64,000 bases of DNA from an uncultured Veillonellaceae bacterium (GTDB taxonomy: Bacteria; Bacillota; Negativicutes; JARBTT01): NCBI GenBank assembly GCA_963805085.1, contig CAWDTA010000002.1, forward strand, positions 160,001 through 224,000, read 5' to 3'. A model generated the notes under the pieces. The model searched no databases. It worked only from the letters and a program-made list of their open reading frames with translations, and was not told where the DNA came from. Below are positions 36,215 through 50,573 of the stretch, one piece after another. Numbering within the stretch: position 1 is the first letter of the stretch; each line of letters begins with the position of its first letter. The translations under genes were made by a program, and so were the position numbers.

Positions 36215-36352
36215 CTAACATTTTTTATATTTTTTTCTTGTTGCTTCTCCGCCCCGAATATGGCGTTCTGCTTTATTCTCTTCTAATATTACTCTAATCT
36301 TTGCCGCTAACCTTTTATTGATAAGAGGCAATCGTTCAATCATATCTTTATG
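36215..36352 (-). CDS. spoIIID: spoIIID 3' half (codons 38-82), separated from the 5' half by an integrated element
   Basis: Manual translation HKDMIERLPLINKRLAAKIRVILEENKAERHIRGGEATRKKYKKC*, matching the SpoIIID C-terminus (ERLP...RHxRGGEAT). Confidence 0.95.
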   Translation of the reverse strand, partial: HKDMIERLPLINKRLAAKIRVILEENKAERHIRGGEATRKKYKKC

Positions 36353-36377
36353 GAACGATTAACCAAAAATGAACGGT
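36342..36377. repeat. Attachment site at the mbl-proximal end
   Basis: Core ATATCTTTATG (36342-36352) plus arm ACCAAAAATGAACGGT (36362-36377). Confidence 0.9.
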
Positions 36378-36385
36378 CACACGAA

Positions 36386-36422
36386 GGGGTTAATGCTCTT
36401 ATTTTCAAAGATCATTAACCCC
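36386..36422 (-). terminator. Hairpin just inside the element end
   Basis: GGGGTTAATG...CATTAACCCC 10-bp perfect stem; weak U-tail. Confidence 0.45.
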
Positions 36423-36479
36423 ACCTATAGTACTTATATTTTATTACAAAACTTACTGTTTAAAAATAGGTATGGTGCA

Positions 36480-36692
36480 CTATTTTTCAATATACTTAAT
36501 ACACTTTTCTGCTAAAAACTTTACAATACCATTTGCTTGCCTATTTTCATAAAAATCTACCATTAACGTATTGAATTCTAGTATGTCCTCTACCTTGATA
36601 TTAAATACACCGTAACCTGCATTAACTAATATACCATTTGCCATTAGGCGAGCAGTTCGTTTATTGGCATTCCAATAAATTACTCCAAACAT
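36480..36692 (-). pseudogene. C-terminal fragment of a Fic/Doc family protein
   Basis: YWNANKRTARLMANGILVNAG resembles the second half of the Fic motif (FxDGNKRTAR); the catalytic His and N-terminus are missing. Confidence 0.7.
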
Positions 36693-36702
36693 AAAAGACT
36701 TA

Positions 36703-37335
36703 TCACCGACTTAATTTTTTATCAATATAATCCTCCATGATACCACGATATTCGGCGTTTTTCCCCTCTACCTTTAAATTTTCCTTTACCTTAAGCAAGA
36801 TTGCCTTTGTCCATTGCCCCTGAGCTTTGTAATGTGCTAATTTATTGCGAAGTGTCTCTAACGCAGCTTTACGATTTGTCTTTAAGAAAACACCTACACA
36901 ATCACAATTCAAATTCAAGGTCACATCTAAATCATTATTCGTTTCCCTATCTTCAGAGTAAATTGTTCCGTCTGATTTATATTTTATCAGCTGAACTTTA
37001 GAACGATCAAGTGGATTTATGGTTAACACAACATTCCCACGATGTGCATCACAAGTCATATCCTCTTTTCGGTGCCCCCTATGACCTAAACAAACGCCTA
37101 GCATATTACGATAATCTAACTCTAGATTTTCATCTACCGTCTTCGGAATATAGTGCTCTATAGTCATAGTATCCTTAGCAATTCTTCTCATGCAATATGC
37201 ACATATATGACCTTGCTCAATTAATAAAGCTTCTCGAACATTCTCTTTTTGTGAAAATCCATCATAATAAGCACCATTTTGTTGTTTGTATTTTATCAAG
37301 CTTGCTGGCTCTTGTCCCTTCTCTATAAAAATCAT
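36703..37335 (-). CDS. HNH endonuclease, Septu PtuB / retron-associated type
   Basis: EQGHICAYC...IEHYIPK...YRNMLGVC...TCDAHRGN; immediately downstream of an AAA ATPase. Confidence 0.85.
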   Translation of the reverse strand: MIFIEKGQEPASLIKYKQQNGAYYDGFSQKENVREALLIEQGHICAYCMRRIAKDTMTIEHYIPKTVDENLELDYRNMLGVCLGHRGHRKEDMTCDAHRGNVVLTINPLDRSKVQLIKYKSDGTIYSEDRETNNDLDVTLNLNCDCVGVFLKTNRKAALETLRNKLAHYKAQGQWTKAILLKVKENLKVEGKNAEYRGIMEDYIDKKLSR

Positions 37336-37339
37336 GATG

Positions 37340-38611
37340 TCAATCTCCCAATATAGTTGTTTCTAAATCCAACGTAATTTGGGCTTTTACTATATCAGGA
37401 TCATTGTCGTCCAACTCACCCATTAACTCTTCTAAAATAACTTTGGCTTTCCTATACTCTTCTTCGTCAATTGCTTGGTAGAAACCATCAAATTTATCTT
37501 TTACTTCTTTTGCACGTTCACCACTATGTTGAAAATAGGATAACACATCATTTACTTGATACCCATAAGCAGATGGTCTATACTCAATATCCATATCATT
37601 CTTAATGGTAATTAGTTGCTCATTTTTACAAGAAGCAATAATCAAGGGCGAATGCGTTGTAGTAATAAATTGTGTGCAAGGAAACGTTGTTTTTAACGCA
37701 TCAACAATTTTCCATTGCCATTTAGGATGTAAATGCAAGTCCAGTTCATCAATGAGAACAATCCCCGGCGTTTTACTGGTTACTTCTTTACGTAAATTTG
37801 GATTTAACACCGCCATACGATATGCGATATCCATAACCATCCAAATTACCGATTGATAACCAGAACTTAATAAGTGAATAGGAATGTTTTCTTCTTCATT
37901 TATACTATATACCAATTGACCTGTTCTCTTATGAAACCGTACTCCTTTGACCTGTTTTTCACACATAATACTCATAAAAGTAACAATTGCTTCTTTTACT
38001 GCTTCATACTCAGAAATTTTTTTATCTTCTTGCCAAGAAATTTCCTCCATCCGTTTGCACCAATTTAGCAACATCTTTGCATTAGATTCCTCTGCTAAGC
38101 AATCTATATAACCAACACTTCTAGTGTAATTCTCCCGAAATACATCTGTTGCTTTTTCCCGTTTTTGCGCCCACATTCTAGCAGCACTTTGATAATTAAT
38201 CAACGGTACTATTTTTTCGGTATCATCCAGCATTTCTTTACTAGCTCTGCAAATATCCCTAGGTTCTACTGTTGTCCTGCCTCTTAAAGTTTTCTTTTGC
38301 CTACCCCATGCAAATTCTTGATTATCTAAAATAGCCGTACATTCAACTTTTACTGGATATTCTTGTTTTATATTAATCGATCCATCACCAGTTAGCGTAC
38401 TTTCCAATCGAACTTCATCTTGGCTAATGTGTTTTGTATTAATTTCATTAACTCCCGCTAAAAAGCCACCTAACCCAACTGATATTGCTTCCAATATAGA
38501 TGTCTTTCCTACACCGTTATCCCCAATTAATATATTAAATCCAGCTTTAAAATTTAGAGCTACATCTTTAATTCCTTTAAAATTTTTAATCAGAATTGAC
38601 TGTAATTGCAA
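37340..38611 (-). CDS. AAA/ABC-like ATPase, Septu PtuA type
   Basis: GDNGVGKTS, LSSGYQ, GIVLIDELDLHLHPKWQ, QFITTTHSP; TTG start after AGGAGG. Confidence 0.85.
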   Translation of the reverse strand: MQLQSILIKNFKGIKDVALNFKAGFNILIGDNGVGKTSILEAISVGLGGFLAGVNEINTKHISQDEVRLESTLTGDGSINIKQEYPVKVECTAILDNQEFAWGRQKKTLRGRTTVEPRDICRASKEMLDDTEKIVPLINYQSAARMWAQKREKATDVFRENYTRSVGYIDCLAEESNAKMLLNWCKRMEEISWQEDKKISEYEAVKEAIVTFMSIMCEKQVKGVRFHKRTGQLVYSINEEENIPIHLLSSGYQSVIWMVMDIAYRMAVLNPNLRKEVTSKTPGIVLIDELDLHLHPKWQWKIVDALKTTFPCTQFITTTHSPLIIASCKNEQLITIKNDMDIEYRPSAYGYQVNDVLSYFQHSGERAKEVKDKFDGFYQAIDEEEYRKAKVILEELMGELDDNDPDIVKAQITLDLETTILGD

Positions 38612-38831
38612 ATTGACACCTCCTAACTATCAAATTTAACCACTATATATTAAACGTACATGTATAAGTAATCATTTTGGTACAAGTCTACGAACCATAT
38701 TTTCAAATACATATTTATACTTATACCCCAAACTACATAGTTTATATTCGTAATAACTATGTAAAATCCTTCATTTATACCGCTAATTTGGCTTATATAA
38801 GTAAATGCAATAATATTAGTCCTAAACTAAA

Positions 38832-38868
38832 AGAACCTATTGCACAATTTTTAAAAGCAATAGGTTCT
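38832..38868 (-). terminator. Rho-independent terminator after the recombinase
   Basis: AGAACCTATTGC...GCAATAGGTTCT 12-bp stem followed by a T-run on the minus strand. Confidence 0.7.
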
Positions 38869-38874
38869 CTACGT

Positions 38875-40410
38875 TTATATAGCAGCCGCATGGGTAATCT
38901 CCAAATCGGAAAATAATTTCAAATAAACTTGGAGCTCACCTTCTACGGTCACAACAATTTTATCAATGACCTTTCTCAGCAAAGCATTATCAATAAGTTC
39001 TGCATTTAGCACGGCTTGAATACTACCACAATACTTACGAACCACTTCGTCAATCCGACTTAAAATAGAAGTATTCCCTCTGATAGCACTAAGTTCATTC
39101 TCGTATTTGGCTATTGCCAAATTTAATTCAGTGGTTCGTTCTTTGAGTTCATCAATCGTAATAGCGTCAACTTCAAACATTTCTGTTTGTTTTGATTTTG
39201 CTTTCTTGAGCCTTGCCAATTCAGCCAATATAAAAGGTTCCGACAGTTCATTATCTTGCGGTTTATATTGTTTTCTAAATTCGGTTATTGTTTGCTTTAA
39301 CAGCTTGTCCTTCGATGATACCAACCCGCCCAAATAGCTTTTAATCTCCTCGATCAGTTCTTTTTCATCGATAATTGTATGATTGTTACAGAAATCCATG
39401 CCGTTAGCGTTCCTACCAGAACAGCACCACCGTATGTATTCATTAACGTACTTTCTCTGTGTCCTTCTGAAGCTATAACCGCAATCACCACATTTGATAA
39501 GAGTACTAAAACAATATTTGTTTGATTGACGTTTATTGGTTATACGAAAATTTTCTGTTCGCTCAGCGAGCAAAGATTGTGCTTTAGCAAAAAGTTCCTT
39601 ATCAATAATAGTAAGTTCTGGCTTGTCTACAATAAATTGTTTATCAACGCTATTCTTCACTCGTTCACCAGTCAAAAAATCCTTAACCGATTCTTTGCCA
39701 TTGATAACCTTACCTGTATAAAGCGGATTGGTTAGTATCGTAGAAATTGCTTGCTGTGACCACCGGCATTTACGTTTTGTTACTAACCCTTCCTTATTTA
39801 ATAGCTGTGAAATCTTGTTGGCACCATGCCGCTGATTTACATAGTAATCAAATATGCGTTTTACAACCTTTGACTCTACTTCATTTATTGTTAGATTAAA
39901 ATATTCACCTACTGTTTTATCATAACCATAGACAATATTAGGAACCCGCCCCTTTTCGGCATTACGTTTTTTACCAAACTTTACACGTTTAGAAAGATTA
40001 GCCGATTCTTCCTGAGCAACAGCTGCCAATATTGTCAAGGTCAATTCACCATCATTGCTAGACATATTGGCCGTTACGAAGCGGCAATCAATATTTAATG
40101 ACTTTAGTTTACGAATGCTCTGGAGAAAGTCTACGACGTTACGCGCAAGCCTAGATACATCTTTTACAAATACGCATTCAAACTTTCTTCGCTGAGCATC
40201 AAGCATCATACGGTTGAACTCTTTACGATTTTTTAACTTAGTCCCACTAATCCCTTCGTCAGCATACAACTCAACAAGCTCATAATTATTTTTAACAGCA
40301 TACTCTTCAAAAAATTCTTTCTGTGCTTGCAGACTTAATAGCTGCTCGTCCTTTTCAGTTGATACCCTACAGTAAGCGGCAATTTTTTGTTTTCCATCAC
40401 TACCAACCAT
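38875..40410 (-). CDS. Large serine recombinase (SpoIVCA/CisA-like integrase)
   Basis: AAYCRVST (catalytic Ser), DEGISG, SRLARN, recombinase domain, zinc ribbon CGDCG...WCC...C, coiled coil; start moved to ATG at 40410 after GGAGG. Confidence 0.96.
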   Translation of the reverse strand: MVGSDGKQKIAAYCRVSTEKDEQLLSLQAQKEFFEEYAVKNNYELVELYADEGISGTKLKNRKEFNRMMLDAQRRKFECVFVKDVSRLARNVVDFLQSIRKLKSLNIDCRFVTANMSSNDGELTLTILAAVAQEESANLSKRVKFGKKRNAEKGRVPNIVYGYDKTVGEYFNLTINEVESKVVKRIFDYYVNQRHGANKISQLLNKEGLVTKRKCRWSQQAISTILTNPLYTGKVINGKESVKDFLTGERVKNSVDKQFIVDKPELTIIDKELFAKAQSLLAERTENFRITNKRQSNKYCFSTLIKCGDCGYSFRRTQRKYVNEYIRWCCSGRNANGMDFCNNHTIIDEKELIEEIKSYLGGLVSSKDKLLKQTITEFRKQYKPQDNELSEPFILAELARLKKAKSKQTEMFEVDAITIDELKERTTELNLAIAKYENELSAIRGNTSILSRIDEVVRKYCGSIQAVLNAELIDNALLRKVIDKIVVTVEGELQVYLKLFSDLEITHAAAI

Positions 40411-40452
40411 CGTATAACTTCCTCCCTTCATTCAAAATTGAAACAATTTTAA

Positions 40453-40614
40453 TTAAGCTGAATGCCTAACATCATAACCGATATCATCATCACCAGTCTT
40501 ATCATTGATTTCTCTATTAACTTTATTTATAATCGCTGAAGCTAAAATTTTAGGTAGATACTTGTCCACCGCATCTTCACTATTAGGATTAACAAACGTA
40601 ATTTTAAGGCTCAT
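40453..40614 (-). CDS. 53-aa protein directly upstream of the recombinase; candidate recombination directionality factor
   Basis: Manual translation MSLKITFVNPNSEDAVDKYLPKILASAIINKVNREINDKTGDDDIGYDVRHSA*; strong RBS GAGGGGGAG; stop 42 nt before the recombinase ATG. Confidence 0.7.
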   Translation of the reverse strand: MSLKITFVNPNSEDAVDKYLPKILASAIINKVNREINDKTGDDDIGYDVRHSA

Positions 40615-40767
40615 AGTAAACTCCCCCTCACATATTAAAAAATTGATTAGCCACCAACTATAGTTTTGTATAGTAAATCTTATTGTTATGACACCAAAAA
40701 TATAACCATAAAATTTTACCTACATAAGAAATACCCATAATTCAAAACCCTTGCTATGGTTCCGAAC

Positions 40768-40799
40768 AAAAAAGGCTCCACGTCAGACCACGCGAAGCC
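40768..40799 (-). terminator. Terminator downstream of the tRNA remnant
   Basis: GGCTTCGCGT-GGTCTG-ACGTGGAGCC followed by TTTTTT on the minus strand. Confidence 0.65.
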
Positions 40800-40812
40800 G
40801 TGAATTTACTAA

Positions 40813-40874
40813 TGGCAGAGAGGGATGGATTCGAACCCTTGGCACCTTGCGGTACAATTGATTTGGAGTAAACT
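40813..40874 (-). pseudogene. Degenerate 3' part of a tRNA-Ser gene
   Basis: Minus strand AGTTTACTCCAAATCAATT-GTACCGCAAGGTGC-CAAGGGTTCGAATCCATCCCTCTCTGCCA: long variable arm, TTCGAAT loop, GCCA end; mismatched stems and no 5' half. Confidence 0.75.
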
Positions 40875-41205
40875 ATCTTTTCTAAAATTGACTTATTCCA
40901 CATAAAAAGCAATGCCATAAGAAGAAACAGATAACTATTATATATCATCTATTAATTGTTATTGTTGGATAAATATTGAATAATTTGTCAAGCGATGTTA
41001 ATATAAAAGTGCAACTAGCATTGCTTAACACAAGAGATAAACTAAGGGAGCTTATCCTTTTAGGGACAAAACATGGTCGTTATTTCCAATTTGTTTCCTA
41101 TTAGCCATGCCCTCCGTCAAAGGGATAAAATTTATCTTATAAGTCATAATATGATATTTCATTCAATTATAGATCATATATCCAAATGGTATATAGAATA
41201 AAGAG

Positions 41206-42174
41206 GTGGTTCATATATTTTTTTTAATCGGGATAGTATCAACATTTATTATGCTTTCATTACTTCCAAATACTTCTTTTGGTCGTAATAGAAGCATCAC
41301 GGCATTGTTTATGTTCGTTTATTCTTCATTGTATTTTTTCATTATTCAGTATGGATTAACTGTAAATAATTCTTTTAAAATTCCTCTCTTTTTTGTAGCA
41401 TTAATTTTAATTTTATATTTATCAACGGCCGATAGGTATATTAATCTAAAATTGGATTTAGATATGCTATTTAAAATTGTTTTGTTTATAATGATACCGA
41501 TAGTAGTATGTTTTTCGTTTCCAACCGCTAATAATCAATTTCACTTAATTGATATATTAATTGTTGCTTTTGTTTTTGGAATAAATCAATCACGTTTTAA
41601 TAAAACCACAATGTTATATCAAGAAAGCACAATTGAATTTTATGGATCGTCTACTACAGCTCATCTTCTAATTTTGTTTATTTTTCTGGGCTATAGGAAA
41701 ATTAATATCAATCTATTTTTCATTAATACAATGGATGCATGGGGATTAACTTTGGTAGTTACTTTTTTATGTTGTTTTTTCGCAATTTTTATTGGAGTAA
41801 AATTAAACTATCTTAGTTTTAATTTCAAAAAAGTTAAAACTAAAACTTTACTAATATTAACTATTTTTAATTTTTTTCATATAGCAATAGCAGAAGAAAT
41901 TATCTATAGAGGATTTGTCTATAATTATCTACGACAGTTCATCGGTGGAGGAGATTGGATACCACTGGTATTGACAACTTTATTATTTGGGTGTCACCAT
42001 ATTAGCTTTGGTGGCAGAAGAATGTTTGTACTTTCTTCTATAGCTGGTTTCTTTTATGGTTTAATATATATGCTTACAGGAAACCTATTAACCTCGGCAA
42101 TTATTCATACTATTACTAATATGGTTTGGCGATTATTTTTTGTTATAAGATCTAATGTAGAGGCGCAAAAATGA
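41206..42174 (+). CDS. CPBP (CAAX protease/Abi) family intramembrane metalloprotease
   Basis: AEEIIYRG, FGCHH and HTITN motifs; multi-TM; very AT-rich. Confidence 0.9.
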   Translation: MVHIFFLIGIVSTFIMLSLLPNTSFGRNRSITALFMFVYSSLYFFIIQYGLTVNNSFKIPLFFVALILILYLSTADRYINLKLDLDMLFKIVLFIMIPIVVCFSFPTANNQFHLIDILIVAFVFGINQSRFNKTTMLYQESTIEFYGSSTTAHLLILFIFLGYRKININLFFINTMDAWGLTLVVTFLCCFFAIFIGVKLNYLSFNFKKVKTKTLLILTIFNFFHIAIAEEIIYRGFVYNYLRQFIGGGDWIPLVLTTLLFGCHHISFGGRRMFVLSSIAGFFYGLIYMLTGNLLTSAIIHTITNMVWRLFFVIRSNVEAQK

Positions 42175-42361
42175 TCCTGGTTTTGGTTCTATTATTATAG
42201 TGGGGAATAATAGCAATAATTACTTTTTACAATGATATTAAAAATAAATTTAATTATTGGTATTACAATGAAAGCCATGAATTCAGGAACTGCAATACTG
42301 AACCATTCGATAAAAAATGAAATTTTTAAAATATCAATGTGCATCAAAAATATAAGATACT

Positions 42362-42493
42362 CTATCCATAAGACGTATCCTTACCGCTCAATTTCTCAAT
42401 AAATACTTCTTCCGCTCTGAGCTCTTGCATAATTACTTCTTGCCGGATAGTATTTTGATCCAGCGAACTTACTCTTACATAACCGATTTTCAT
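42362..42493 (-). pseudogene. Truncated small serine resolvase (43 aa)
   Basis: Manual translation MKIGYVRVSSLDQNTIRQEVIMQELRAEEVFIEKLSGKDTSYG*. Confidence 0.85.
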
Positions 42494-42518
42494 ATGCTAC
42501 ACTCCCCATTAAAACAGA

Positions 42519-42626
42519 AAAAGTGTTCCACAAAGTCTACTTTGATTATGGGCTAGCCCAAAAATCATTTTTCGACTTATGTGGAACACTTTTATTTTGT
42601 ACCATTAAGGTATACCTTATTGGTGC
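42519..42626. promoter_or_regulatory. res-like site upstream of the resolvase relic
   Basis: Inverted repeat AAAAGTGTTCCACA-AAGTC / GACTTATGTGGAACACTTTT plus a 28-bp near-palindrome GTACCATTAAGGTATACCTTATTGGTGC centred on TATA. Confidence 0.65.
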
Positions 42627-42636
42627 ACTCATCTTA

Positions 42637-43821
42637 TTAATTTATATGCCTGTTATCATTAACTCGCTTTATGTACCGATTAAATTGAGGTACAGTAAAG
42701 TCCACTTCACCATAGCGGGGAGCATAGATAAACCCCTTATAAATCAATTGCCCTCTGACTGGCGAAATACTTTGCACACCTGTATTCATTTTGCTAGCTA
42801 TTTCGGCAATCGTACATGGTAATTCACCACATTCAACCATAGCAAGCATAAATTGCTTTTCCTTTGGTGTTGCTCGATCATACCGCACCTTGAAAAAGCT
42901 GTCATCCAAACTTCTCTCAAAATCCGGATAAGCTGCCTTCACAGATGCTAGATCAATAGTCTTATCTTTAATAAACGCCCAAACCTGTTTTCCATATTCC
43001 TGAAGAAAATAAGGATATCCTTCGGTAATTCTTAGTATTTCACCAATAGCGTCATCACTAAACGTTACATCCATTTTTTTAGCAGGCTCTACTAACGCCA
43101 ATTTAGCCGCCTCTGCTTCTAAAGAACCAATCGAAATAAAGCTAAATAGCCGTTCAGCATAGGATTTTATATCGCCAGCAATCTTGGTCACCTTCGGCAA
43201 GCCTGCTGAAATTAACGTCACAGGCAACCCCTTTTGATTTGCTCGATGCAAGGCAGTAATTAATGCTTCAAATTCATCATCTTTTAAATATTGTATTTCA
43301 TCAATAAATAGACAAACTGAACTTTCGCTATTTTTTGCAAGCGTTCCCATGGATACTAATAATTCCGTAAGATCATTAGAAAAATTTCCTGTATCCGATA
43401 CCCCTACTGCTGCATCCACTTCATCATTTATCCCTACACTTATTTCCCCCTCTGGAGAGTAAGTAATTTTAAAAGCTTTTAATACTGACATTGCTTTTTG
43501 AAAATAATTTTTTGCTTTTGCCTTAACGCTCATTTGTTTTATTAATTTTTGTATATGTAAAGAAATAGAGACTTTAAAAGACGAACGCTCTGACACTTCA
43601 ATGTGTTCATATAGGACATCATACTCGTCAGCAATCTCTTCAATTTTGTTTAAGAGTACGGTTTTCCCAACACCACGCAAGCCATAGTAAACCACCGAAC
43701 GAGCAGGATAGCCATGTGCCACATAAGCAATAATTTCTTTTGCTGCCTCAATGGTATCATCACGCCCAGCTAAATAATTTGGTACTAAACCCGCTCCCGG
43801 AGTATAAGGATTTATTATCAT
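42637..43821 (-). CDS. AAA-family P-loop ATPase with probable C-terminal winged helix
   Basis: NPYTPGAG, GLRGVGKT, LFIDEIQ, TEGYPYFLQ. Confidence 0.85.
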   Translation of the reverse strand: MIINPYTPGAGLVPNYLAGRDDTIEAAKEIIAYVAHGYPARSVVYYGLRGVGKTVLLNKIEEIADEYDVLYEHIEVSERSSFKVSISLHIQKLIKQMSVKAKAKNYFQKAMSVLKAFKITYSPEGEISVGINDEVDAAVGVSDTGNFSNDLTELLVSMGTLAKNSESSVCLFIDEIQYLKDDEFEALITALHRANQKGLPVTLISAGLPKVTKIAGDIKSYAERLFSFISIGSLEAEAAKLALVEPAKKMDVTFSDDAIGEILRITEGYPYFLQEYGKQVWAFIKDKTIDLASVKAAYPDFERSLDDSFFKVRYDRATPKEKQFMLAMVECGELPCTIAEIASKMNTGVQSISPVRGQLIYKGFIYAPRYGEVDFTVPQFNRYIKRVNDNRHIN

Positions 43822-43931
43822 ACAATCACCTTCTTGTCATGATTATTACCGCAATTATATCTTTATATTCGATAAATTTCAATATTTACGCTAAAAAATG
43901 CTTATATCTTTATTGATACACCCATTCAATT

Positions 43932-45161
43932 CTATAATTTTGCTACTACATCTAAATTCACACTATAAACATTCATTTTACCACTTTGCTTAACACTCAG
44001 CATATCTTTAGGTATTTGCTTAATCCAACCACGAATTGTAGATGGACTTAATTCAGCAATTTCTACTAGATTTTGAATACTAACACCTTCATCATCAAAC
44101 AAAGTACTTTGCACCAAAGCATGCAATATATTTCGGATTGGTTTATCTCCATTTGCATATTTTTCAATTTTTTCTTTATAAAAATTATACTGTTCGCCTT
44201 TTCCTTCAATAATAATACATAAATTTTCGATAGTTTCTTCTATAAGTTCCAAAAATCCAATAACAAAAGGAGTTAAATCACCTTTATTTTTATAATCATT
44301 CACTTCCTTAAACATATCATAATATTTTTTAAGCTTATTTTTAATCGTATACGACAAACTAAAACCAACTACTGATTCTAATTGCTGATTTAATAGATAG
44401 CTACTAATGAATCTTGCCATTCTGCCGTTGCCATCATAAAAAGGATGTATATAACCAAACATATAGTGAAATACTGCTATATTCACGAAATCGTTTAATT
44501 TATTATTGTTTAACATATCTAGTGCAACTGTCATAGCTGTAATAATTTTGGCTTCGGGATACATACCCTTATGAATCACCTTTTGGCTTGATGAAATTAT
44601 TTCAACAATTTCTTTTCTAAAAATATCACCATCTGGAGCATTATCTGGATTATCAGCTTTTACTTCTGCTAAAACGAATTCATCATAAAGTTTTCTAATA
44701 TCCTGACAGGATTTTAAAGTAAATTCCTGTCCATATGACAACATCATATATTTTTGTACCAAACCATACAAACGCTTCTTTTCCTTATTTTCTGTTTTAT
44801 CATCAATTAGCTCTCTGATTTCTTTACGTGTACTGTGAACACCCTCAATCTCGTTAGTCAGCTGAATTTCATCTACAATACACTTTAACGTAAATTGAGT
44901 CAAAGCAATCGGCGGTACACTTTTGGTTATTTTTAAAAGTCTCTTATCCAATTTCAAAATACTGGTTAATAAATTTAAAATTTCTAAATTCATAACAACA
45001 AACGCCCGATTTTCACCAATTGTAAAATCATAACGATAAGTAAACTCGTTATTAAATCTTTCTTTATATGTAGTTTCATAGGCTTCATTATTTTTATAAA
45101 ACAATTTATTTAAAGATTTATACAACACTTGACTCACATCCTTTTTGTCATTATACTTCAC
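43932..45161 (-). CDS. Fic family protein (N-terminal autoinhibitory motif, C-terminal HTH)
   Basis: HPFYDGNGRMAR catalytic motif; TNEIEG inhibitory motif; C-terminal SIQNLVEIAELSPSTIRGWI. Confidence 0.93.
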   Translation of the reverse strand: MKYNDKKDVSQVLYKSLNKLFYKNNEAYETTYKERFNNEFTYRYDFTIGENRAFVVMNLEILNLLTSILKLDKRLLKITKSVPPIALTQFTLKCIVDEIQLTNEIEGVHSTRKEIRELIDDKTENKEKKRLYGLVQKYMMLSYGQEFTLKSCQDIRKLYDEFVLAEVKADNPDNAPDGDIFRKEIVEIISSSQKVIHKGMYPEAKIITAMTVALDMLNNNKLNDFVNIAVFHYMFGYIHPFYDGNGRMARFISSYLLNQQLESVVGFSLSYTIKNKLKKYYDMFKEVNDYKNKGDLTPFVIGFLELIEETIENLCIIIEGKGEQYNFYKEKIEKYANGDKPIRNILHALVQSTLFDDEGVSIQNLVEIAELSPSTIRGWIKQIPKDMLSVKQSGKMNVYSVNLDVVAKL

Positions 45162-45182
45162 TCAAACAAGCAAGTAAACAAC

Positions 45183-45240
45183 AAATAAAACTATTTACTT
45201 ATTAATTTATGATTATTTTAATAAGTAAATAGTTTTATTT
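45183..45240. repeat. 23-bp perfect inverted repeat with 12-nt spacer upstream of fic
   Basis: AAATAAAACTATTTACTTATTAA (45183-45205) / TTAATAAGTAAATAGTTTTATTT (45218-45240). Confidence 0.9.
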
Positions 45241-45283
45241 TAAATTTTCTTATTATATTTTACCCATTTTAATATGATTAAAT

Positions 45284-45430
45284 TCAATTTTCACCGTTCA
45301 CTTTTGGTATATCTTTATGAACAGTACTTTTACTAACACCAAACACCACCGCTGCTTGCCGAACTGTATGTTTACTCTGCAAAATATGATCACAAATATC
45401 TAAGACACGTTTACGAATATATTCCTTCAT
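45284..45430 (-). CDS. spoIIID: spoIIID 5' half (codons 1-40) running into the element; 48-aa truncated product
   Basis: Manual translation MKEYIRKRVLDICDHILQSKHTVRQAAVVFGVSKSTVHKD|IPKVNGEN*; signature TVR...FGVSKSTVHKD; RBS AGGGGG. Confidence 0.95.
   Translation of the reverse strand: MKEYIRKRVLDICDHILQSKHTVRQAAVVFGVSKSTVHKDIPKVNGEN
45293..45319. repeat. Attachment site at the spoIIID-promoter-proximal end
   Basis: Arm ACCGTTCACTTTTGGT (45293-45308) plus core ATATCTTTATG (45309-45319). Confidence 0.9.
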
Positions 45431-45460
45431 TACTCTGCCCCCTAAAGCCATTTGCTAACA

Positions 45461-45490
45461 TGTATATGCAAACAATTAGGCAAGCAGAAC
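45461..45490 (-). promoter_or_regulatory. Sigma-E-like promoter of spoIIID
   Basis: gTTCTGCT-N14-CATATACA; spoIIID is sigma-E dependent in B. subtilis and clostridia. Confidence 0.45.
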
Positions 45491-45637: not shown

Positions 45638-46723
45638 TCACTTGCTTCTTTTTCTACCTATTTTTATTTCAGCACCGATCCATAGCATAATAGGAATAAC
45701 AACCTGAAAGGGTAGAACATAATACTGAAAAACATCTGTAAAATTGAACAGCTCCATTACACTACTAAATTCAAAAATACTGATTGCCAACATTAAAATA
45801 CTTAGTATAAACAACACCGATCCATTTTTTTTAATGTTAAATAGTTTTTTGACTCCTTTTACCGCAGCTAATACACAAATTGATATTTTGGCAATCCCAG
45901 CTAATATAAAGTTATACGATATAATCATTTCAATTCTCGAAAGAAAATCTCCTATATTGATCATCCGCGCTGCTCTATAGGATGGAAAGTATGAATTTTC
46001 CACCATAGGAACACCCAAAACCATAATGCCAAGCAAAAACACAAGCACCAAAACTACCGTTGCTATGAAAATACCATACAAATAAATTTTATAGGGATTA
46101 TCACTCTTTTTAATTGAATCTGCGAATGTTAAAAATAGAACTGTTCCACCAAAGGTAGTCGTAAATATTCTTAAGCTTGCGTTTCCAAGGGCTGTAACAC
46201 TATGCTCCATAACTGGCAAAACATTAGAAATTTTTATTTCTGTAGTAGATAAAATCATGATATATAACAATATGACTAAATACAAAGGTAGTACAAACAT
46301 TGCCCACTTTCCCAAAGTTTCTATTCCACTAAAGGCGAGATAACCAGCGACAACAAGTAGTGTTATCATTATAGGAAGCTCTGGGGTTTCCTGTAAAGTC
46401 ACTATTTTAACAAATTCTGAAATAAGTCTGATTACAATAGCACTCAGATGAATTGCATACCAGGTCATCAAAGCAATGATTATTTTTCCGATTATATCTC
46501 CAAATACCGCTTGGGCTATATCGTACAAATCCATCTCTGGAAACAGACTGATAATCCTAGCATATACAAGTACAAGGATGCTGCCAGCAGCTAATGCAAG
46601 CAGGAGTGCTATCCAAGCATCCTGCCCTACTCCCCAGCTGACGCCCATTACAGCACTGCTCCCAAATAAAAACAATACAATCAAAAAAATAGTTTGCCGC
46701 ATTGATATCATTTCTCTTTGCAT
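45638..46723 (-). CDS. Spore germination receptor B subunit (copy 2)
   Basis: Multi-TM APC-like, QDAWIA, QETP, FLSRIE; start moved to ATG at 46723. Confidence 0.9.
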   Translation of the reverse strand: MQREMISMRQTIFLIVLFLFGSSAVMGVSWGVGQDAWIALLLALAAGSILVLVYARIISLFPEMDLYDIAQAVFGDIIGKIIIALMTWYAIHLSAIVIRLISEFVKIVTLQETPELPIMITLLVVAGYLAFSGIETLGKWAMFVLPLYLVILLYIMILSTTEIKISNVLPVMEHSVTALGNASLRIFTTTFGGTVLFLTFADSIKKSDNPYKIYLYGIFIATVVLVLVFLLGIMVLGVPMVENSYFPSYRAARMINIGDFLSRIEMIISYNFILAGIAKISICVLAAVKGVKKLFNIKKNGSVLFILSILMLAISIFEFSSVMELFNFTDVFQYYVLPFQVVIPIMLWIGAEIKIGRKRSK

Positions 46724-46766
46724 AACAATACCTCTTTCGTCTGTCGCTATCTCTACATTCGCCATA

Positions 46767-47924
46767 TCACTTCGTTAACCCAGTATTTATGATGACGAAT
46801 TCTGGTCTTACTTCAACTTCCATTGTTTGAATATAATACTCCCAATTTTCTTTTAACTGATACCATAATGTTGGATTACTCTTATGAATCATTGCTCCAA
46901 ATCCGAAAATATCACAACCAAATTCTGTTTGTCCTTTTTTTACCACCTCATCCATTCTCTGTAAAAAATTCAAAGTAACTGCTGCTTTAATTTTTTCTAC
47001 ATTACTTTCTTTCAAGACATCAATATCAGTACCAATTTCACCGATCGTTGCCGTGGTCTTAATATCTAAAAAAACTTTAAGACGCTTTCCATCGTAAGAA
47101 TAGGATCTTTTCGTCTTATTTTTTGCTATTTCAAGCGCAAAATTATCCTGATTATCTTGATTTAAAGAAAATTTGGTAATACCTCCAGCAATTTCATCAA
47201 TCGCAAAAAGATAATACTTTGTTTCTTCTGGCGACAAATACCCTTGCAACTTATCTTCCTTAAAAATTGCAGATCCATTTACCTCTACCACTTTTTTATT
47301 TTTATTAGAAATACAGTGAACAGCAGGCAAAACTAAAGCTGCTTCCTTACCTCCGTGTAGAATATCAAAAACCTGATAATTTTCAATCTTTTTTGTAGAG
47401 GCTGTTAGTTTTCGGTCACTACTTATAATTTTTTCAAGTTCTTCAGAAATGATTTTGTCGTCTGTACCACTAGCTGCCAAAATTTCTTTTGCGGTTTTTT
47501 CTTGAGAAATAACTGGGATCGCCGTTTCTCTTGTCTCTGCATCTCGAATAAACCAGTCTAAACTAGGCTTTATTCCCTCTTCTCTAGCAATCTGATTGCT
47601 AATCACAATAATCTTTACATCACTTACATATAATTTTTTCGACAATCTTTTTTTCGCATTTCTAACTGCTTCAAATATCGTTTTTCCTTCCGATTCAACA
47701 AGCTGAGATTTACCAGTACCTTCCTTACTTGCCGCAGATAGATCTAGGATTTCTATTGTTAACTGATAATTATCGTTGTCTGTCTTTCTGTCGATCGCCA
47801 TACCTGTAACAATCGAAATTTTATTTAAGCCCCGATAATTCCAACAGCCACTGAGCGGAATACATACACCAATGATTAAGAAAATACTGATTAGCTTTTT
47901 AATCATCATCACCCCGATCATCAC
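46767..47924 (-). CDS. Spore germination receptor C subunit lipoprotein (copy 2)
   Basis: Lipobox LSGCWN, GMAID, DIFGFG. Confidence 0.93.
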   Translation of the reverse strand: MMIGVMMIKKLISIFLIIGVCIPLSGCWNYRGLNKISIVTGMAIDRKTDNDNYQLTIEILDLSAASKEGTGKSQLVESEGKTIFEAVRNAKKRLSKKLYVSDVKIIVISNQIAREEGIKPSLDWFIRDAETRETAIPVISQEKTAKEILAASGTDDKIISEELEKIISSDRKLTASTKKIENYQVFDILHGGKEAALVLPAVHCISNKNKKVVEVNGSAIFKEDKLQGYLSPEETKYYLFAIDEIAGGITKFSLNQDNQDNFALEIAKNKTKRSYSYDGKRLKVFLDIKTTATIGEIGTDIDVLKESNVEKIKAAVTLNFLQRMDEVVKKGQTEFGCDIFGFGAMIHKSNPTLWYQLKENWEYYIQTMEVEVRPEFVIINTGLTK

Positions 47925-49410
47925 TATCCAGCCGCGTCTTATTTTTAGTCAAGGTCGCTGGCCGATTAATCATTTTCCACCATGGACCTCTAAAAAAAGT
48001 ATCCTTAACTTCCTGATATTTAAGATTATCCATCGATGTCATTTGCGGTATTCCGAAGGAATGTAAATTTAACAGATGCGTCATTATGATAGAAATTCCT
48101 GCAATAAATCCTAATAATCCCAAGATAGATGATAATGCAATTAACAGTATACGAAGATAAGCAACGGTGGCATTCAATTTAGGTACCAACAAACCAGTAA
48201 TTGCCGTAATAGCAACTACAATAAGCATTGGCGCAGCCACAAGTTTCGCGGCTACTGCCGACTGACCAACAACAAGCGAACCGACAATACTTAGTGCTGG
48301 TCCAATACCTGTAGGCATTCGTATGCCAGTCTCTTTTAGAATATCGAATAAGATGAGCATGACAACCGCCTCCAATACAGCTGGCAATGGCACTCCTAAT
48401 CGTTCCCTTGCAATATTTGTCAAAAGTGTCGTCGGCAGTACTTCTTGATTAAAATCACCGATGACAAGGTAGAATGCAGGCACAGTAATACTCAAGATAA
48501 ATCCCATAATCCTTAGAAGTCTTTCAAATGAAGTGTAATAATAACTTAGGTAGTAATCTTCAGGACTCTGAAAATTTTCAATAAATAGATAAGGCAGTGT
48601 CAACACCACTGGCGAACCATCAACAAATAAAGCAATCCGTCCCTCCAACAATTTTCCGACAACGACATCCGGCCTTTCAGTATAGCCAGTCGCCCGAAAT
48701 GGTGACAGGTTCGAATCGCGAATAAGTTCTGTAATGTAATTGCTATCTAAAACACCATCAATATTAATCGTTTCAAGACGACGATAAAGTTCCGCAAGAA
48801 CTTTTTTATTTACAATACTGTCAATATAACAAATACAAGCTTGCGTATGAGTCCGTACACCAAAGCTTTTGAACTTTATTTTCAATTCATTGTTCCGCAA
48901 TCTGCGCCTGACCATCGAAAGATTGATCATCAAAGCTTCACAGAATCCTTCCTTTGGTCCACTAAGAATCTTTTCACCGGAAGGCTCACCTATTGCCCTT
49001 GTGTTGAATCCTTTGCTATTTAGAAGAAGCGCCTCTGATTCCCCTTCTATAAATAAAATCGTATCACCATAATTAACTGCTTCAATAATTTCTTGCCATT
49101 GATTTGTTTGTTTCACCTGATTAATAGAAATTACTTGATGAACAAGAATGTCTAGTTTCTGTTCCTCGCTAAAGGAAACTCTTGATAGCATCAACGGCTT
49201 TATAATATTTTCGTTTATGATTGCAGAATTAACAAGACCGTCAGCTTGGACAATACAATATTTCAATGCAGTATTATGACAATTGGTTATCCACCTTGTT
49301 CCGATTGTCGCGTCATCTACGAATATTTTTTTTAATTCGGCAAGATTTTCTTCTAATGATGAAGAAAGTACATCTGCTATTTTATTCTTTTCTAAACTTT
49401 TTTTCAGCAT
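47899..49410 (-). CDS. Spore germination receptor A subunit (copy 2)
   Basis: GPKEGF, TERPDVV..KLLEGR, DGSP, ETGIRMP; start moved to ATG at 49410. Confidence 0.95.
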   Translation of the reverse strand: MLKKSLEKNKIADVLSSSLEENLAELKKIFVDDATIGTRWITNCHNTALKYCIVQADGLVNSAIINENIIKPLMLSRVSFSEEQKLDILVHQVISINQVKQTNQWQEIIEAVNYGDTILFIEGESEALLLNSKGFNTRAIGEPSGEKILSGPKEGFCEALMINLSMVRRRLRNNELKIKFKSFGVRTHTQACICYIDSIVNKKVLAELYRRLETINIDGVLDSNYITELIRDSNLSPFRATGYTERPDVVVGKLLEGRIALFVDGSPVVLTLPYLFIENFQSPEDYYLSYYYTSFERLLRIMGFILSITVPAFYLVIGDFNQEVLPTTLLTNIARERLGVPLPAVLEAVVMLILFDILKETGIRMPTGIGPALSIVGSLVVGQSAVAAKLVAAPMLIVVAITAITGLLVPKLNATVAYLRILLIALSSILGLLGFIAGISIIMTHLLNLHSFGIPQMTSMDNLKYQEVKDTFFRGPWWKMINRPATLTKNKTRLDSDDRGDDD

Positions 49411-49463
49411 AAAAATCCTCCCCTTACGGAAATTCACTGCTCGATATCTTAGTCATAAGCATC

Positions 49464-50573
49464 TTATTGTTTTGATTCATCTACTGATGATTTTTTTCTT
49501 TTTTTACCTTTTTTCATTTCAGCGCCAATCCATACCAACACCGGAATAAGAATTTCAAATGGCAACGCATAGTATTGATAAACATCTATAAACTTCATCA
49601 TTTCCATAACACTGTTAAATTGAAATATGCTTACTAGTAAAATTAAAATACTGACAAAAAATACAGTTTTCAGATTACTTTTAATGTTAAACAATTTTTC
49701 AACACCCTTTACTGCCGCAAATACACAAATTGATATTTTGGCAATACCACCTAATATAAAATTATAAAATATTGACATTTCAATTCTCGAAAACAACTCG
49801 CCTATATTAATAATCCTTGCCGCTGTATAAGATGGAAAATATGATTTTCCCAGCATTGGAACACCCAAAATCATCAGATTACGTAAAGCTACAAACACTA
49901 AAACTACCCCACCAATGAAAATCCCGTACAAATAAATTCTATAAGGATTGTCACTTTTTTTAATGGAATCTGCTAATGTTAAAAAAAGTACTGTTTCGGC
50001 AAAGGGAAATGTAAATAATTTTAACGTTGCTGACCCCATAGTTGGAAAATCATGTGTCACCATCGGTAAAATATTGGAAAATGTTACTTGTTTAATAGAT
50101 AGAACTATCGTAAATAACACGACCGCTATCACCAACACTGTGGCAATCATCGACCATTTCCCCAAAGTTACTATCCCGCTAACAACCAAATAACCCGTAA
50201 CAACAAGTGTTGCTATCATCACAACAAGCTGTGGTGTTTCCTCTAATGCCACAATTTGAATAAATTCCGAAAAATTTCTAAGCACAAAGGCTGCCAGATG
50301 AATCGCATACCACGTCATCAATACAATGATAATTTTCCCGATTATTTTTCCAAATATAGCTTGGGCTATATCATAAAGATTCCTCTCGGGAAATAAACTT
50401 ATTATTCTAGCATACACAAGAGCAATCATGCTTCCAAACATAGAGGCCACAACTACTGCAATCCAAGAATCCTGCCCTGCCTCCGAATTCATCCCCATTA
50501 CAGCACTGCTCCCAAATAAAAACAATACAATCATACAAATAGCTTGCCCCATTGATATCATTTCTTTTTGCAT
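49464..50573 (-). CDS. Spore germination receptor B subunit (copy 1)
   Basis: QDSWIA, EETP, FPFAETV, FSRIE. Confidence 0.92.
   Translation of the reverse strand: MQKEMISMGQAICMIVLFLFGSSAVMGMNSEAGQDSWIAVVVASMFGSMIALVYARIISLFPERNLYDIAQAIFGKIIGKIIIVLMTWYAIHLAAFVLRNFSEFIQIVALEETPQLVVMIATLVVTGYLVVSGIVTLGKWSMIATVLVIAVVLFTIVLSIKQVTFSNILPMVTHDFPTMGSATLKLFTFPFAETVLFLTLADSIKKSDNPYRIYLYGIFIGGVVLVFVALRNLMILGVPMLGKSYFPSYTAARIINIGELFSRIEMSIFYNFILGGIAKISICVFAAVKGVEKLFNIKSNLKTVFFVSILILLVSIFQFNSVMEMMKFIDVYQYYALPFEILIPVLVWIGAEMKKGKKRKKSSVDESKQ

Follow-up and report, generated by a model that had tools for sequence, protein, structure and literature searches.

The sporulation gene spoIIID is interrupted by a 9-kb element in an uncultured Veillonellaceae bacterium of the class Negativicutes. 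The interruption lies in a 64,000-nucleotide stretch of contig CAWDTA010000002.1 (assembly GCA_963805085.1), referred to below as the window; coordinates given without a locus or contig label are positions in it. spoIIID is broken after codon 40, and precise removal of the insert restores one open frame. The anatomy of the joints and the comparison with related loci show that a large serine recombinase (LSR) encoded by the insert integrated it into spoIIID. It is likely, at a probability of about 0.7, that the insert is a gene-intervening element of the skin/gin kind that is excised in the sporulating mother cell, excision during development being proposed by analogy with skin, gin and SPbeta.

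The 5' part of spoIIID lies in a minus-strand frame of 48 amino acids (aa) at 45430..45284, which reads MKEY...STVHKD and then continues through eight element-encoded residues, the stop being at 45284. Residues 1-40 of this frame match positions 1-41 of the Pfam family SpoIIID (PF12116; E 6.7e-17), and the corresponding half gene, codons 1-40, occupies 45309..45430 and ends in a core shared with the other half. The 3' part, also on the minus strand (36352..36215), runs from His38 to the stop codon; its 45 residues (HKDMIERLP...KKC plus stop) match PF12116 positions 37-80 (E 3.6e-19). The 11-bp core, CATAAAGATAT, stands at both joints (45319..45309 and 36352..36342, minus strand) and nowhere else in the window, where 0.12 copies are expected; two or more copies occurred in none of 100 shuffles. 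The cores are 8,967 bp apart (45309 - 36342), and removing this distance joins 40 and 42 codons in frame into a stop-free gene of 82 codons. An earlier reading of the DNA, made from the sequence only, had proposed that spoIIID is split by a recombinase element of about 9 kb, with an 11-bp direct repeat at the joints, a stop-free 82-aa product after removal of the insert, undecayed halves, an intact LSR and the canonical neighbours mbl and two flagellar rod genes; every particular of this description was borne out.

On its 3' side, spoIIID is followed by mbl, two flagellar rod-protein genes, flgA and the L-ring gene flgH, the last of which implies an outer membrane and thus a diderm host. A GerA/GerAC/spore-permease operon lies on the 5' side. 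A search of the whole assembly (4.21 Mb in 5 contigs, 83% complete, 6% contamination) with PF12116 found no second spoIIID, only the two halves; this settles for the available assembly a check that the sequence-only reading had proposed. The promoter of the gene is retained: a box GCATATACATG at 45459..45469 (minus strand), followed by TTAGCAAA and a GGGGG ribosome-binding site, is conserved in the aligned loci. The box resembles the -10 type of mother-cell sigma-E promoters. The full arrangement TTTTGTCC-GCATATACATG-TTAGCAAA, then GGGGG and ATG, is conserved in all 7 split and all 12 intact loci aligned, and its -35 side differs in the present genome and in locus L015.

The joints have the anatomy of recombinase attachment sites. 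The attL core occupies 45309..45319 and the attR core 36342..36352, both on the minus strand. The adjoining element ends, ACCAAAAGTGAACGG on the left (45294..45308, minus strand) and CCGTTCATTTTTGGT on the right (36362..36376, minus strand), are the putative attP arms and are symmetric at 22 of 30 positions. When the element ends are joined, they form an attP-type inverted repeat whose dyad centre falls on the CA of the His38 codon, with 20 of 26 positions matching; no other offset exceeds 13 of 26, and for 5,000 centres drawn at random within the element the mean is 7.3 and the highest value 15. All 52 attR joints, that is, the window's own and 51 C-terminal-half rows from other loci (including two repeats of other rows), have the element ending immediately before the CA of the His codon. 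In another split genome, G013, the two joints have little in common beyond CA, which fits crossover at this dinucleotide. Crossover thus probably occurs at the CA of the His38 codon, the first CA of the core. Read by eye, the hexamer TGAACG is placed at 18-23 nt from the centre in each of the two attP arms, but at 13-18 nt in the right arm of the reconstituted gene. A 5-bp shift between the attP and attB half-sites of serine integrases was reportedly seen in structural work by Rutherford and colleagues in 2013. In a subfamily from gut Clostridia (L037-L068; for example, L038:3146-3148), the LSR gene reaches within a few bases of the attR core, so that the 3' end of the LSR gene and the attachment arm overlap.

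The LSR gene is a 518-aa open reading frame (ORF) at 38875..40431 (minus strand) that matches the integrase family phrog_95 (E 3.1e-114). Translation likely starts at Met8 (40410), behind GGGAGGA, giving a protein of 511 aa as in relatives. The domain set is complete, comprising an N-terminal resolvase domain with the catalytic serine, a recombinase domain and a zinc ribbon (Resolvase, Recombinase and Zn_ribbon_recom). The catalytic residues R22, V23, S24 and T25 and the zinc-ribbon cysteines C314, C317, C337 and C348 are invariant in 22 sequences. Identity to the LSRs of real phages is at most about 33%. A phage origin was considered and rejected: the best match in a phage collection, MT838016.1 (46%), is an integrated copy carrying the spoIIID 3' half and not a circle.

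The same break recurs in other genomes, the element being one of a widely distributed family that has hardly been described. PF12116 was searched against 401 genomes of the class, of which 74 scored above the cut-off: 62 with a full-length gene and 12 with a split or partial one, the latter in 9 GTDB families. The 12 are the present genome (G000) and G013, G019, G034, G036, G043, G072, G084, G104, G132, G172 and G307, and the break lies at about profile position 35-42. In 10 of these genomes, a half is adjoined by a recombinase of the same family. The other two are G084 and G307, whose halves lie at the ends of contigs; G307 yielded the N-terminal half only. Where both halves share one contig, the inserts measure 7.4 to 26 kb. 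One genome with an intact spoIIID, G110, has an additional 24-residue match to SpoIIID positions 20-43 on another contig (C71:8247-8318), which could be a remnant or an att-like mimic.

The association between recombinase and target extends beyond the class. An alignment of five LSRs, 58-82% identical to that of the window, was searched against one genome for each of 185,579 species; 160 relatives were found, the best 80 were kept, and spoIIID halves were sought beside them with a hidden Markov model built from 12 intact SpoIIID proteins. Among these 80, a half lies beside 48 of the 51 LSR loci at 40% identity or more and beside none of the 29 at 37% or less. The three loci of the former group in which no half was found are L029, whose LSR is 62% identical and which has no half within 10 kb; L067, a contig of 4.8 kb; and L070, which is cut inside the LSR gene. 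The relatives come mostly from Clostridia and include metagenome-assembled genomes (MAGs) of Negativicutes, Selenomonadales and Pelosinus, and Ruminiclostridium sufflavum DSM 19573; further relatives are from Oscillospiraceae, Lachnospiraceae, Congzhengia, Ructibacterium, Intestinibacillus and many MAGs of gut Clostridia. The search for split and intact spoIIID in other genomes, also suggested by the sequence-only reading, therefore shows a recurrent break point.

The halves are preserved in these loci as well. The RHIRGG motif is kept in 50 of the 51 C-terminal-half rows from other loci, and full-length spoIVA and spo0A are present in all four of the other well-assembled split genomes (G019, G034, G072 and G132). 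The recurrent break point, in 12 of the 74 spoIIID-bearing genomes of the class and beside 48 of 51 related LSR loci, speaks strongly for an arrangement that is maintained and functional, and against a dead gene; the promoter and ribosome-binding site are likewise retained in all split loci aligned.

A conserved 53-aa ORF at 40453..40614 (minus strand), directly upstream of the LSR gene, is a candidate recombination directionality factor. Small ORFs of this kind (34-68 aa), on the same strand as the LSR gene and directly upstream of it, share the core I-x-F-x-N-P-N ... L-P-x-x-L-A-x-A. Ten of 12 complete elements have such an ORF, as do 20 of the loci L015-L070 and 4 further class loci. In the gut subfamily, which is more distant, 18 of 24 loci have a recognisably related form (LHITFHNPNT...). 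The ORF has no match in Pfam or PHROGs. In structure predictions, the complex of the small ORF product with the LSR scored 0.60 in three runs (best of three controls, 0.00), the runs agreeing in at least 82% of contacts with a predicted local distance difference test value (pLDDT) of the partner of at least 64. The mark set for this score is reached by 58 of 80 solved complexes and by 2 of 110 mismatched pairs, and scores of 0.60 or less are seen in only 7 of the 80 solved complexes and in both passing mismatches.

No clear sigma-E promoter stands 5' of the small ORF: 4 of the 7 class loci share a motif whose first box is TCATATT-like, but its second box misfits the sigma-E consensus. CATA-type boxes in this region are leads only. 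At L049:9760-9846, also 5' of the small ORF, TGTCCGCATATCTTGTTAGG closely resembles the conserved spoIIID promoter box TGTCCGCATATACATGTTAGC, which hints that the module of small ORF and LSR may be drivable by the same sigma factor as spoIIID.

The joined form of the gene was sought in metagenomes. No sequencing run contains half or more of the sampled words of the stretch, and the metagenomes used share at most 12% of them; four runs were compared with the locus, using contigs at 90% likeness or more. In groundwater run X3, one contig (depth 2.6, with 44 letters on the shorter side) skips from 36341 to 45309, exactly 8,967 bp, and 11 letters fit both sides. Element contigs of this run have depths of 7-8, so that the joined form has roughly one third of the split form's depth. 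In runs X1 and X4, contigs end exactly at 36352. The X3 contig has the predicted attB form and is the only direct hint of excision; it may be a product of excision, or it may represent a relative whose site is empty. The excised circle (attP) was sought with an IUPAC pattern of the two arms separated by 18-22 nt, which matched no stretch in metagenome contigs and none in viral contigs; with so strict a pattern and such short-lived circles, this null result carries no information. The sequence-only reading had suggested a search of raw reads for the junctions; contigs yielded one of the attB form and none of the attP form.

These observations can be combined into a working model. The LSR inserted the element into the DNA encoding the recognition helix of SpoIIID, at codons Val37-His38. 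In growing cells and in the forespore, the element would stay in place, where an inactive spoIIID costs nothing. After activation of sigma-E in the mother cell, the LSR would recombine attL with attR, probably assisted by the small protein encoded just upstream of it as directionality factor. The 8,967 bp would be released as a circle, leaving a rebuilt spoIIID of 82 codons downstream of the gene's own conserved promoter. Because the mother cell dies, the element would be retained in the spore line. The LSR would thereby become indispensable for sporulation, and the element and its cargo would be protected from loss.

A second mother-cell gene is split in the same genome. sigK is divided between C5:700935-701369 and 704120-704380 (profile positions 2-147 and 140-226; locus L116, 1394-4900) by a second, unrelated recombinase element, a 2.75-kb insert that carries another LSR on the opposite strand and a 163-aa ORF. 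The two LSRs of the genome are 23% identical. sigK is also split in G019 and G034 and probably in G132, and is whole in G072. Skin excision in C. difficile and B. subtilis depends on SpoIIID, as described in PMC5025042; if the same holds here, the spoIIID and sigK excisions would run in series. A more far-reaching proposal, which we offer tentatively and consider rather doubtful as a whole, has three parts. Two successive excisions would gate the mother-cell cascade, that of the spoIIID element coming first, under sigma-E alone, and the restored SpoIIID then licensing excision of the sigK element. The 'NPN' small protein would represent a new family of directionality factors of the spoIIID-targeting LSR clade across Negativicutes and Clostridia. 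The element itself would be a defence island that takes a regulator of early sporulation hostage and so ensures its own persistence in the germ line.

Several observations weigh against developmental excision of the spoIIID element. The genome, at 83% completeness, has no match for spo0A, spoIVA, sigE or spoIIGA, and another genome of the same genus, G001 (84% complete), has no spoIIID match at all. One C-terminal half, seen in L024 (12976-13152) and L119 (11477-11653), is cut off after AERHIR, with loss of the basic tail, and no small ORF lies upstream of the LSR gene there; it is the sole decayed case of the 51 rows. The promoter region 5' of the small ORF has no clear sigma-E site, its conserved motif being found in four of seven class loci. 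The complex prediction lends weak support to binding between the LSR and the small protein, and cotranscription of the two genes, if real, leaves integration free of the factor unaccounted for. The joined contig of X3, being metagenomic and matched at 90% likeness or more, may come from a relative with an empty site.

The missing sporulation genes bear directly on whether the host forms spores. spo0A, spoIVA, sigE and spoIIGA lie within about 220 kb of each other in G019 and about 370 kb in G072. The housekeeping gene recN, adjacent to spo0A in both of these genomes, is also missing from the present assembly, which points to one unassembled region; ftsZ is present. Such a region is the simplest explanation of the missing genes, and loss of sporulation in this lineage might also account for them. 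The assembly does hold the GerA operon genes and both sigK halves. The label of spore-former given by the sequence-only reading was an overstatement for this assembly, whose missing genes are most likely due to incompleteness.

Were the carriers non-sporulating, or in the course of losing sporulation, the element could be an ordinary integrative island that uses spoIIID as its attachment site and excises, if at all, for transfer. The four genes missing here, the decayed half of one relative, a defence cargo useful to vegetative cells and the failure of the attP pattern to match metagenome or viral contigs would all fit such a plain disruptive island. We nevertheless judge it unlikely, since the halves, promoter and ribosome-binding site are intact in nearly all carriers, spo0A and spoIVA persist in the other well-assembled ones, the split recurs across 9 families, the GerA-type germinant receptor genes beside the locus are intact, and the absence of recN along with spo0A indicates an assembly gap. 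Excision at low frequency in growing cells, followed by re-integration, could alternatively toggle sporulation heritably as a form of bet-hedging. LSRs can run both reactions depending on the directionality factor (PMC5595907), and a joined form at about a third of the split depth in X3 would fit a mixed population. Such a population-level switch is nonetheless improbable: the element would be permanently absent from cured cells if the circle were not kept and re-inserted, no replication gene was seen in the element in Pfam and PHROG scans, and the tested precedents described in PMC5595907 and PMC5025042 are all mother-cell specific. That foreign DNA was joined into spoIIID by misassembly or binning is scarcely credible; the assembly has 5 contigs and 6% contamination, but the same junctions, arms and LSR recur in many independent assemblies, including the single-contig G019 and G072, and contigs from metagenomes run through attR into element sequence. 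The preferred reading remains excision in the mother cell.

The element is mobile. By Mbl (90% identical) and the rod protein (64%), the present genome is closest to G019, yet the LSRs of the two are 58% identical; between the present genome and G034, the LSRs are 82% identical and the rod protein 56%. LSR similarity does not track host similarity, which indicates that the element moves horizontally. Cargo also differs between elements: the AAA_16 ATPase is 85% identical between the window and L016, and the remaining cargo is unlike. The mismatch between LSR and host, together with the varied cargo, indicates that the element has entered spoIIID repeatedly and exchanges cargo. In X3, a contig of depth 8 links 36498 to 38896 through 233 other letters and represents a variant without the Septu defence cassette; it belongs to an element 92-95% similar to that of the window. 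In most relatives the LSR gene lies right beside the spoIIID 3' half, and the Septu cassette (within 36498-38896) looks like a later addition. The 14.8-kb element of G072 carries a full LSR and a 204-aa fragment of a second LSR of the family (L117:9513-10124, minus strand; profile positions 257-436), which suggests a decayed tandem element.

The cargo is predicted to serve defence. On the minus strand, a PtuA ATPase gene (37340..38611; PADLOC PDLC00298, E 3.5e-169) and a PtuB HNH nuclease gene (36703..37335; PDLC00322, E 2.6e-67) lie 4 bp apart and qualify as a Septu type I system. Near the other end, also on the minus strand, a 409-aa Fic-domain protein (43932..45161; PF02661, E 1.4e-12) is a SoFic-like defence candidate (PADLOC SoFic, E 3.4e-34). 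The Septu pair and the Fic protein, together with an AAA ATPase, form the predicted defence cargo. A 70-aa ORF at 36480..36692 (minus strand) matches positions 159-226 of 230 of phrog_11900, the C-terminal end of a Fic-like phage family that is also matched by the full-length Fic gene, and is probably the remnant of a Fic-like gene. The AAA_16-type ATPase (394 aa; 42637..43821, minus strand; Pfam) has no assigned function, and a CAAX/Rce1-like membrane protease of 322 aa is encoded on the plus strand at 41206..42174 (PF02517, E 7.8e-17). Among the eight element proteins scanned against PHROGs, none is a phage structural, packaging or lysis protein, and a named function is attached to the integrase alone; the names of PtuA and PtuB, which were not among these eight, come from PADLOC. 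The lack of phage structural genes marks the element as a small island of predicted defence genes and not a prophage.

The 3' fragment of a tRNA (T-arm, acceptor end and CCA), followed by a terminator-like hairpin, lies at 40774..40865 (minus strand), a short distance upstream of the module of small ORF and LSR. ARAGORN found no whole tRNA gene in the element, and the sole Rfam match is far below the gathering score; the fragment may be the scar of an earlier tRNA-targeting insertion. A scan for sigma-70 promoters and terminators gave 56 against 51.3 in shuffles, that is, the level of shuffled sequence. Outside the element, two spore-permease paralogues (45638-46765 and 49464-50573) lie within 45638-50573 on the minus strand, where the germinant receptor genes are intact; the former belongs to the operon directly upstream of spoIIID.

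The spoIIID elements have consequences for genome annotation. Pipelines that ignore them will report the gene as absent or call it a pseudogene, and will misjudge the spore-forming ability of uncultured Firmicutes, and the family is common, being found in 12 of the 74 spoIIID-bearing genomes of the class and in many gut Clostridia. The LSR, its well-defined attB/attP pair and the candidate factor would make a ready-made orthogonal integrase system. A genome with both spoIIID and sigK split offers a direct test of chained developmental DNA rearrangements.

Elements that intervene in sporulation genes are already known as skin, SPbeta, vfbin, vrin, gin and yin. The sequence-only reading knew of no characterised element in spoIIID and of none of this type in Negativicutes, and it overstated the novelty: in the one earlier mention of this target in print, a single sentence, Galperin et al. 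2022 (bioRxiv 10.1101/2022.02.25.481979) name cotJC of Laceyella sacchari and, in Ruminiclostridium cellulolyticum, spoIIID as genes interrupted by skin-like elements, and they also list split sigK genes in Negativicutes. The R. cellulolyticum element has the same target gene and is of the same kind as the one described here. The LSR of R. sufflavum DSM 19573 (L026) is 64% identical to that of the window and adjoins a spoIIID 3' half, so that the R. cellulolyticum element probably has a recombinase of the same family. It resides in another class of hosts, whereas the present host is a diderm with flgH in the window, and the main text of the report gives no att sites, factor, distribution or experiment for it. 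A literature search of main texts found neither an experimental study of an element in spoIIID nor an instance of one from Negativicutes. New in this account are how far the element has spread within the class, the anatomy of its att sites, the conserved small ORF upstream of the LSR gene, the cargo of defence genes and the pairing with a split sigK.

Among experimentally studied systems, excision of skinCd requires the LSR CD1231 and the 72-aa factor CD1234 (PMC5025042). As described there, skinCd is likewise an LSR element in the gene of a mother-cell regulator, with a small unannotatable directionality factor inside the element and the LSR at the edge beside the 3' gene half, as in most relatives of the spoIIID element. 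Its target, however, is sigK, whereas the present element interrupts spoIIID, which acts upstream of sigK. CD1234 is encoded apart from the LSR, in contrast to the candidate factor here, and needs sigma-E and SpoIIID (PMC5025042); dependence on SpoIIID of this type would be impossible for the spoIIID element because no SpoIIID exists before excision.

The gin element, which interrupts gerE in Bacillus cereus ATCC 10987 and needs GirC and the small factor GirX (PMC5595907), is also a non-phage element in the gene of a small helix-turn-helix regulator of the mother-cell line. According to that study, it too has a short shared core with predicted cleavage at the central dinucleotide of an inverted repeat, an LSR with a very small factor and evidence of horizontal mobility. 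CD1234 and GirX are of the same size class as the candidate factor and equally unannotatable. gin differs in its target and host class, and in having three recombinases where the spoIIID element has one and defence cargo; its excision was demonstrated in vivo and in vitro (PMC5595907), while that of the spoIIID element is predicted. With skin of Bacillus subtilis (SpoIVCA) and SPbeta (SprA/SprB), the spoIIID element would share developmental excision by an LSR that rebuilds a sporulation gene in the mother cell (PMC4191935). It differs from both in its size of 9 kb and its lack of phage structural genes. Skin and SPbeta are prophage-derived and measure 48-134 kb. In the mother cell, SpoIIID follows sigma-E as the next regulator to be made; thus, a DNA switch in spoIIID would act earlier than skin (sigK) or gin (gerE). 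Once the spoIIID element is counted, an intervening element is known or proposed for each of the regulators that act below sigma-E in the cascade.

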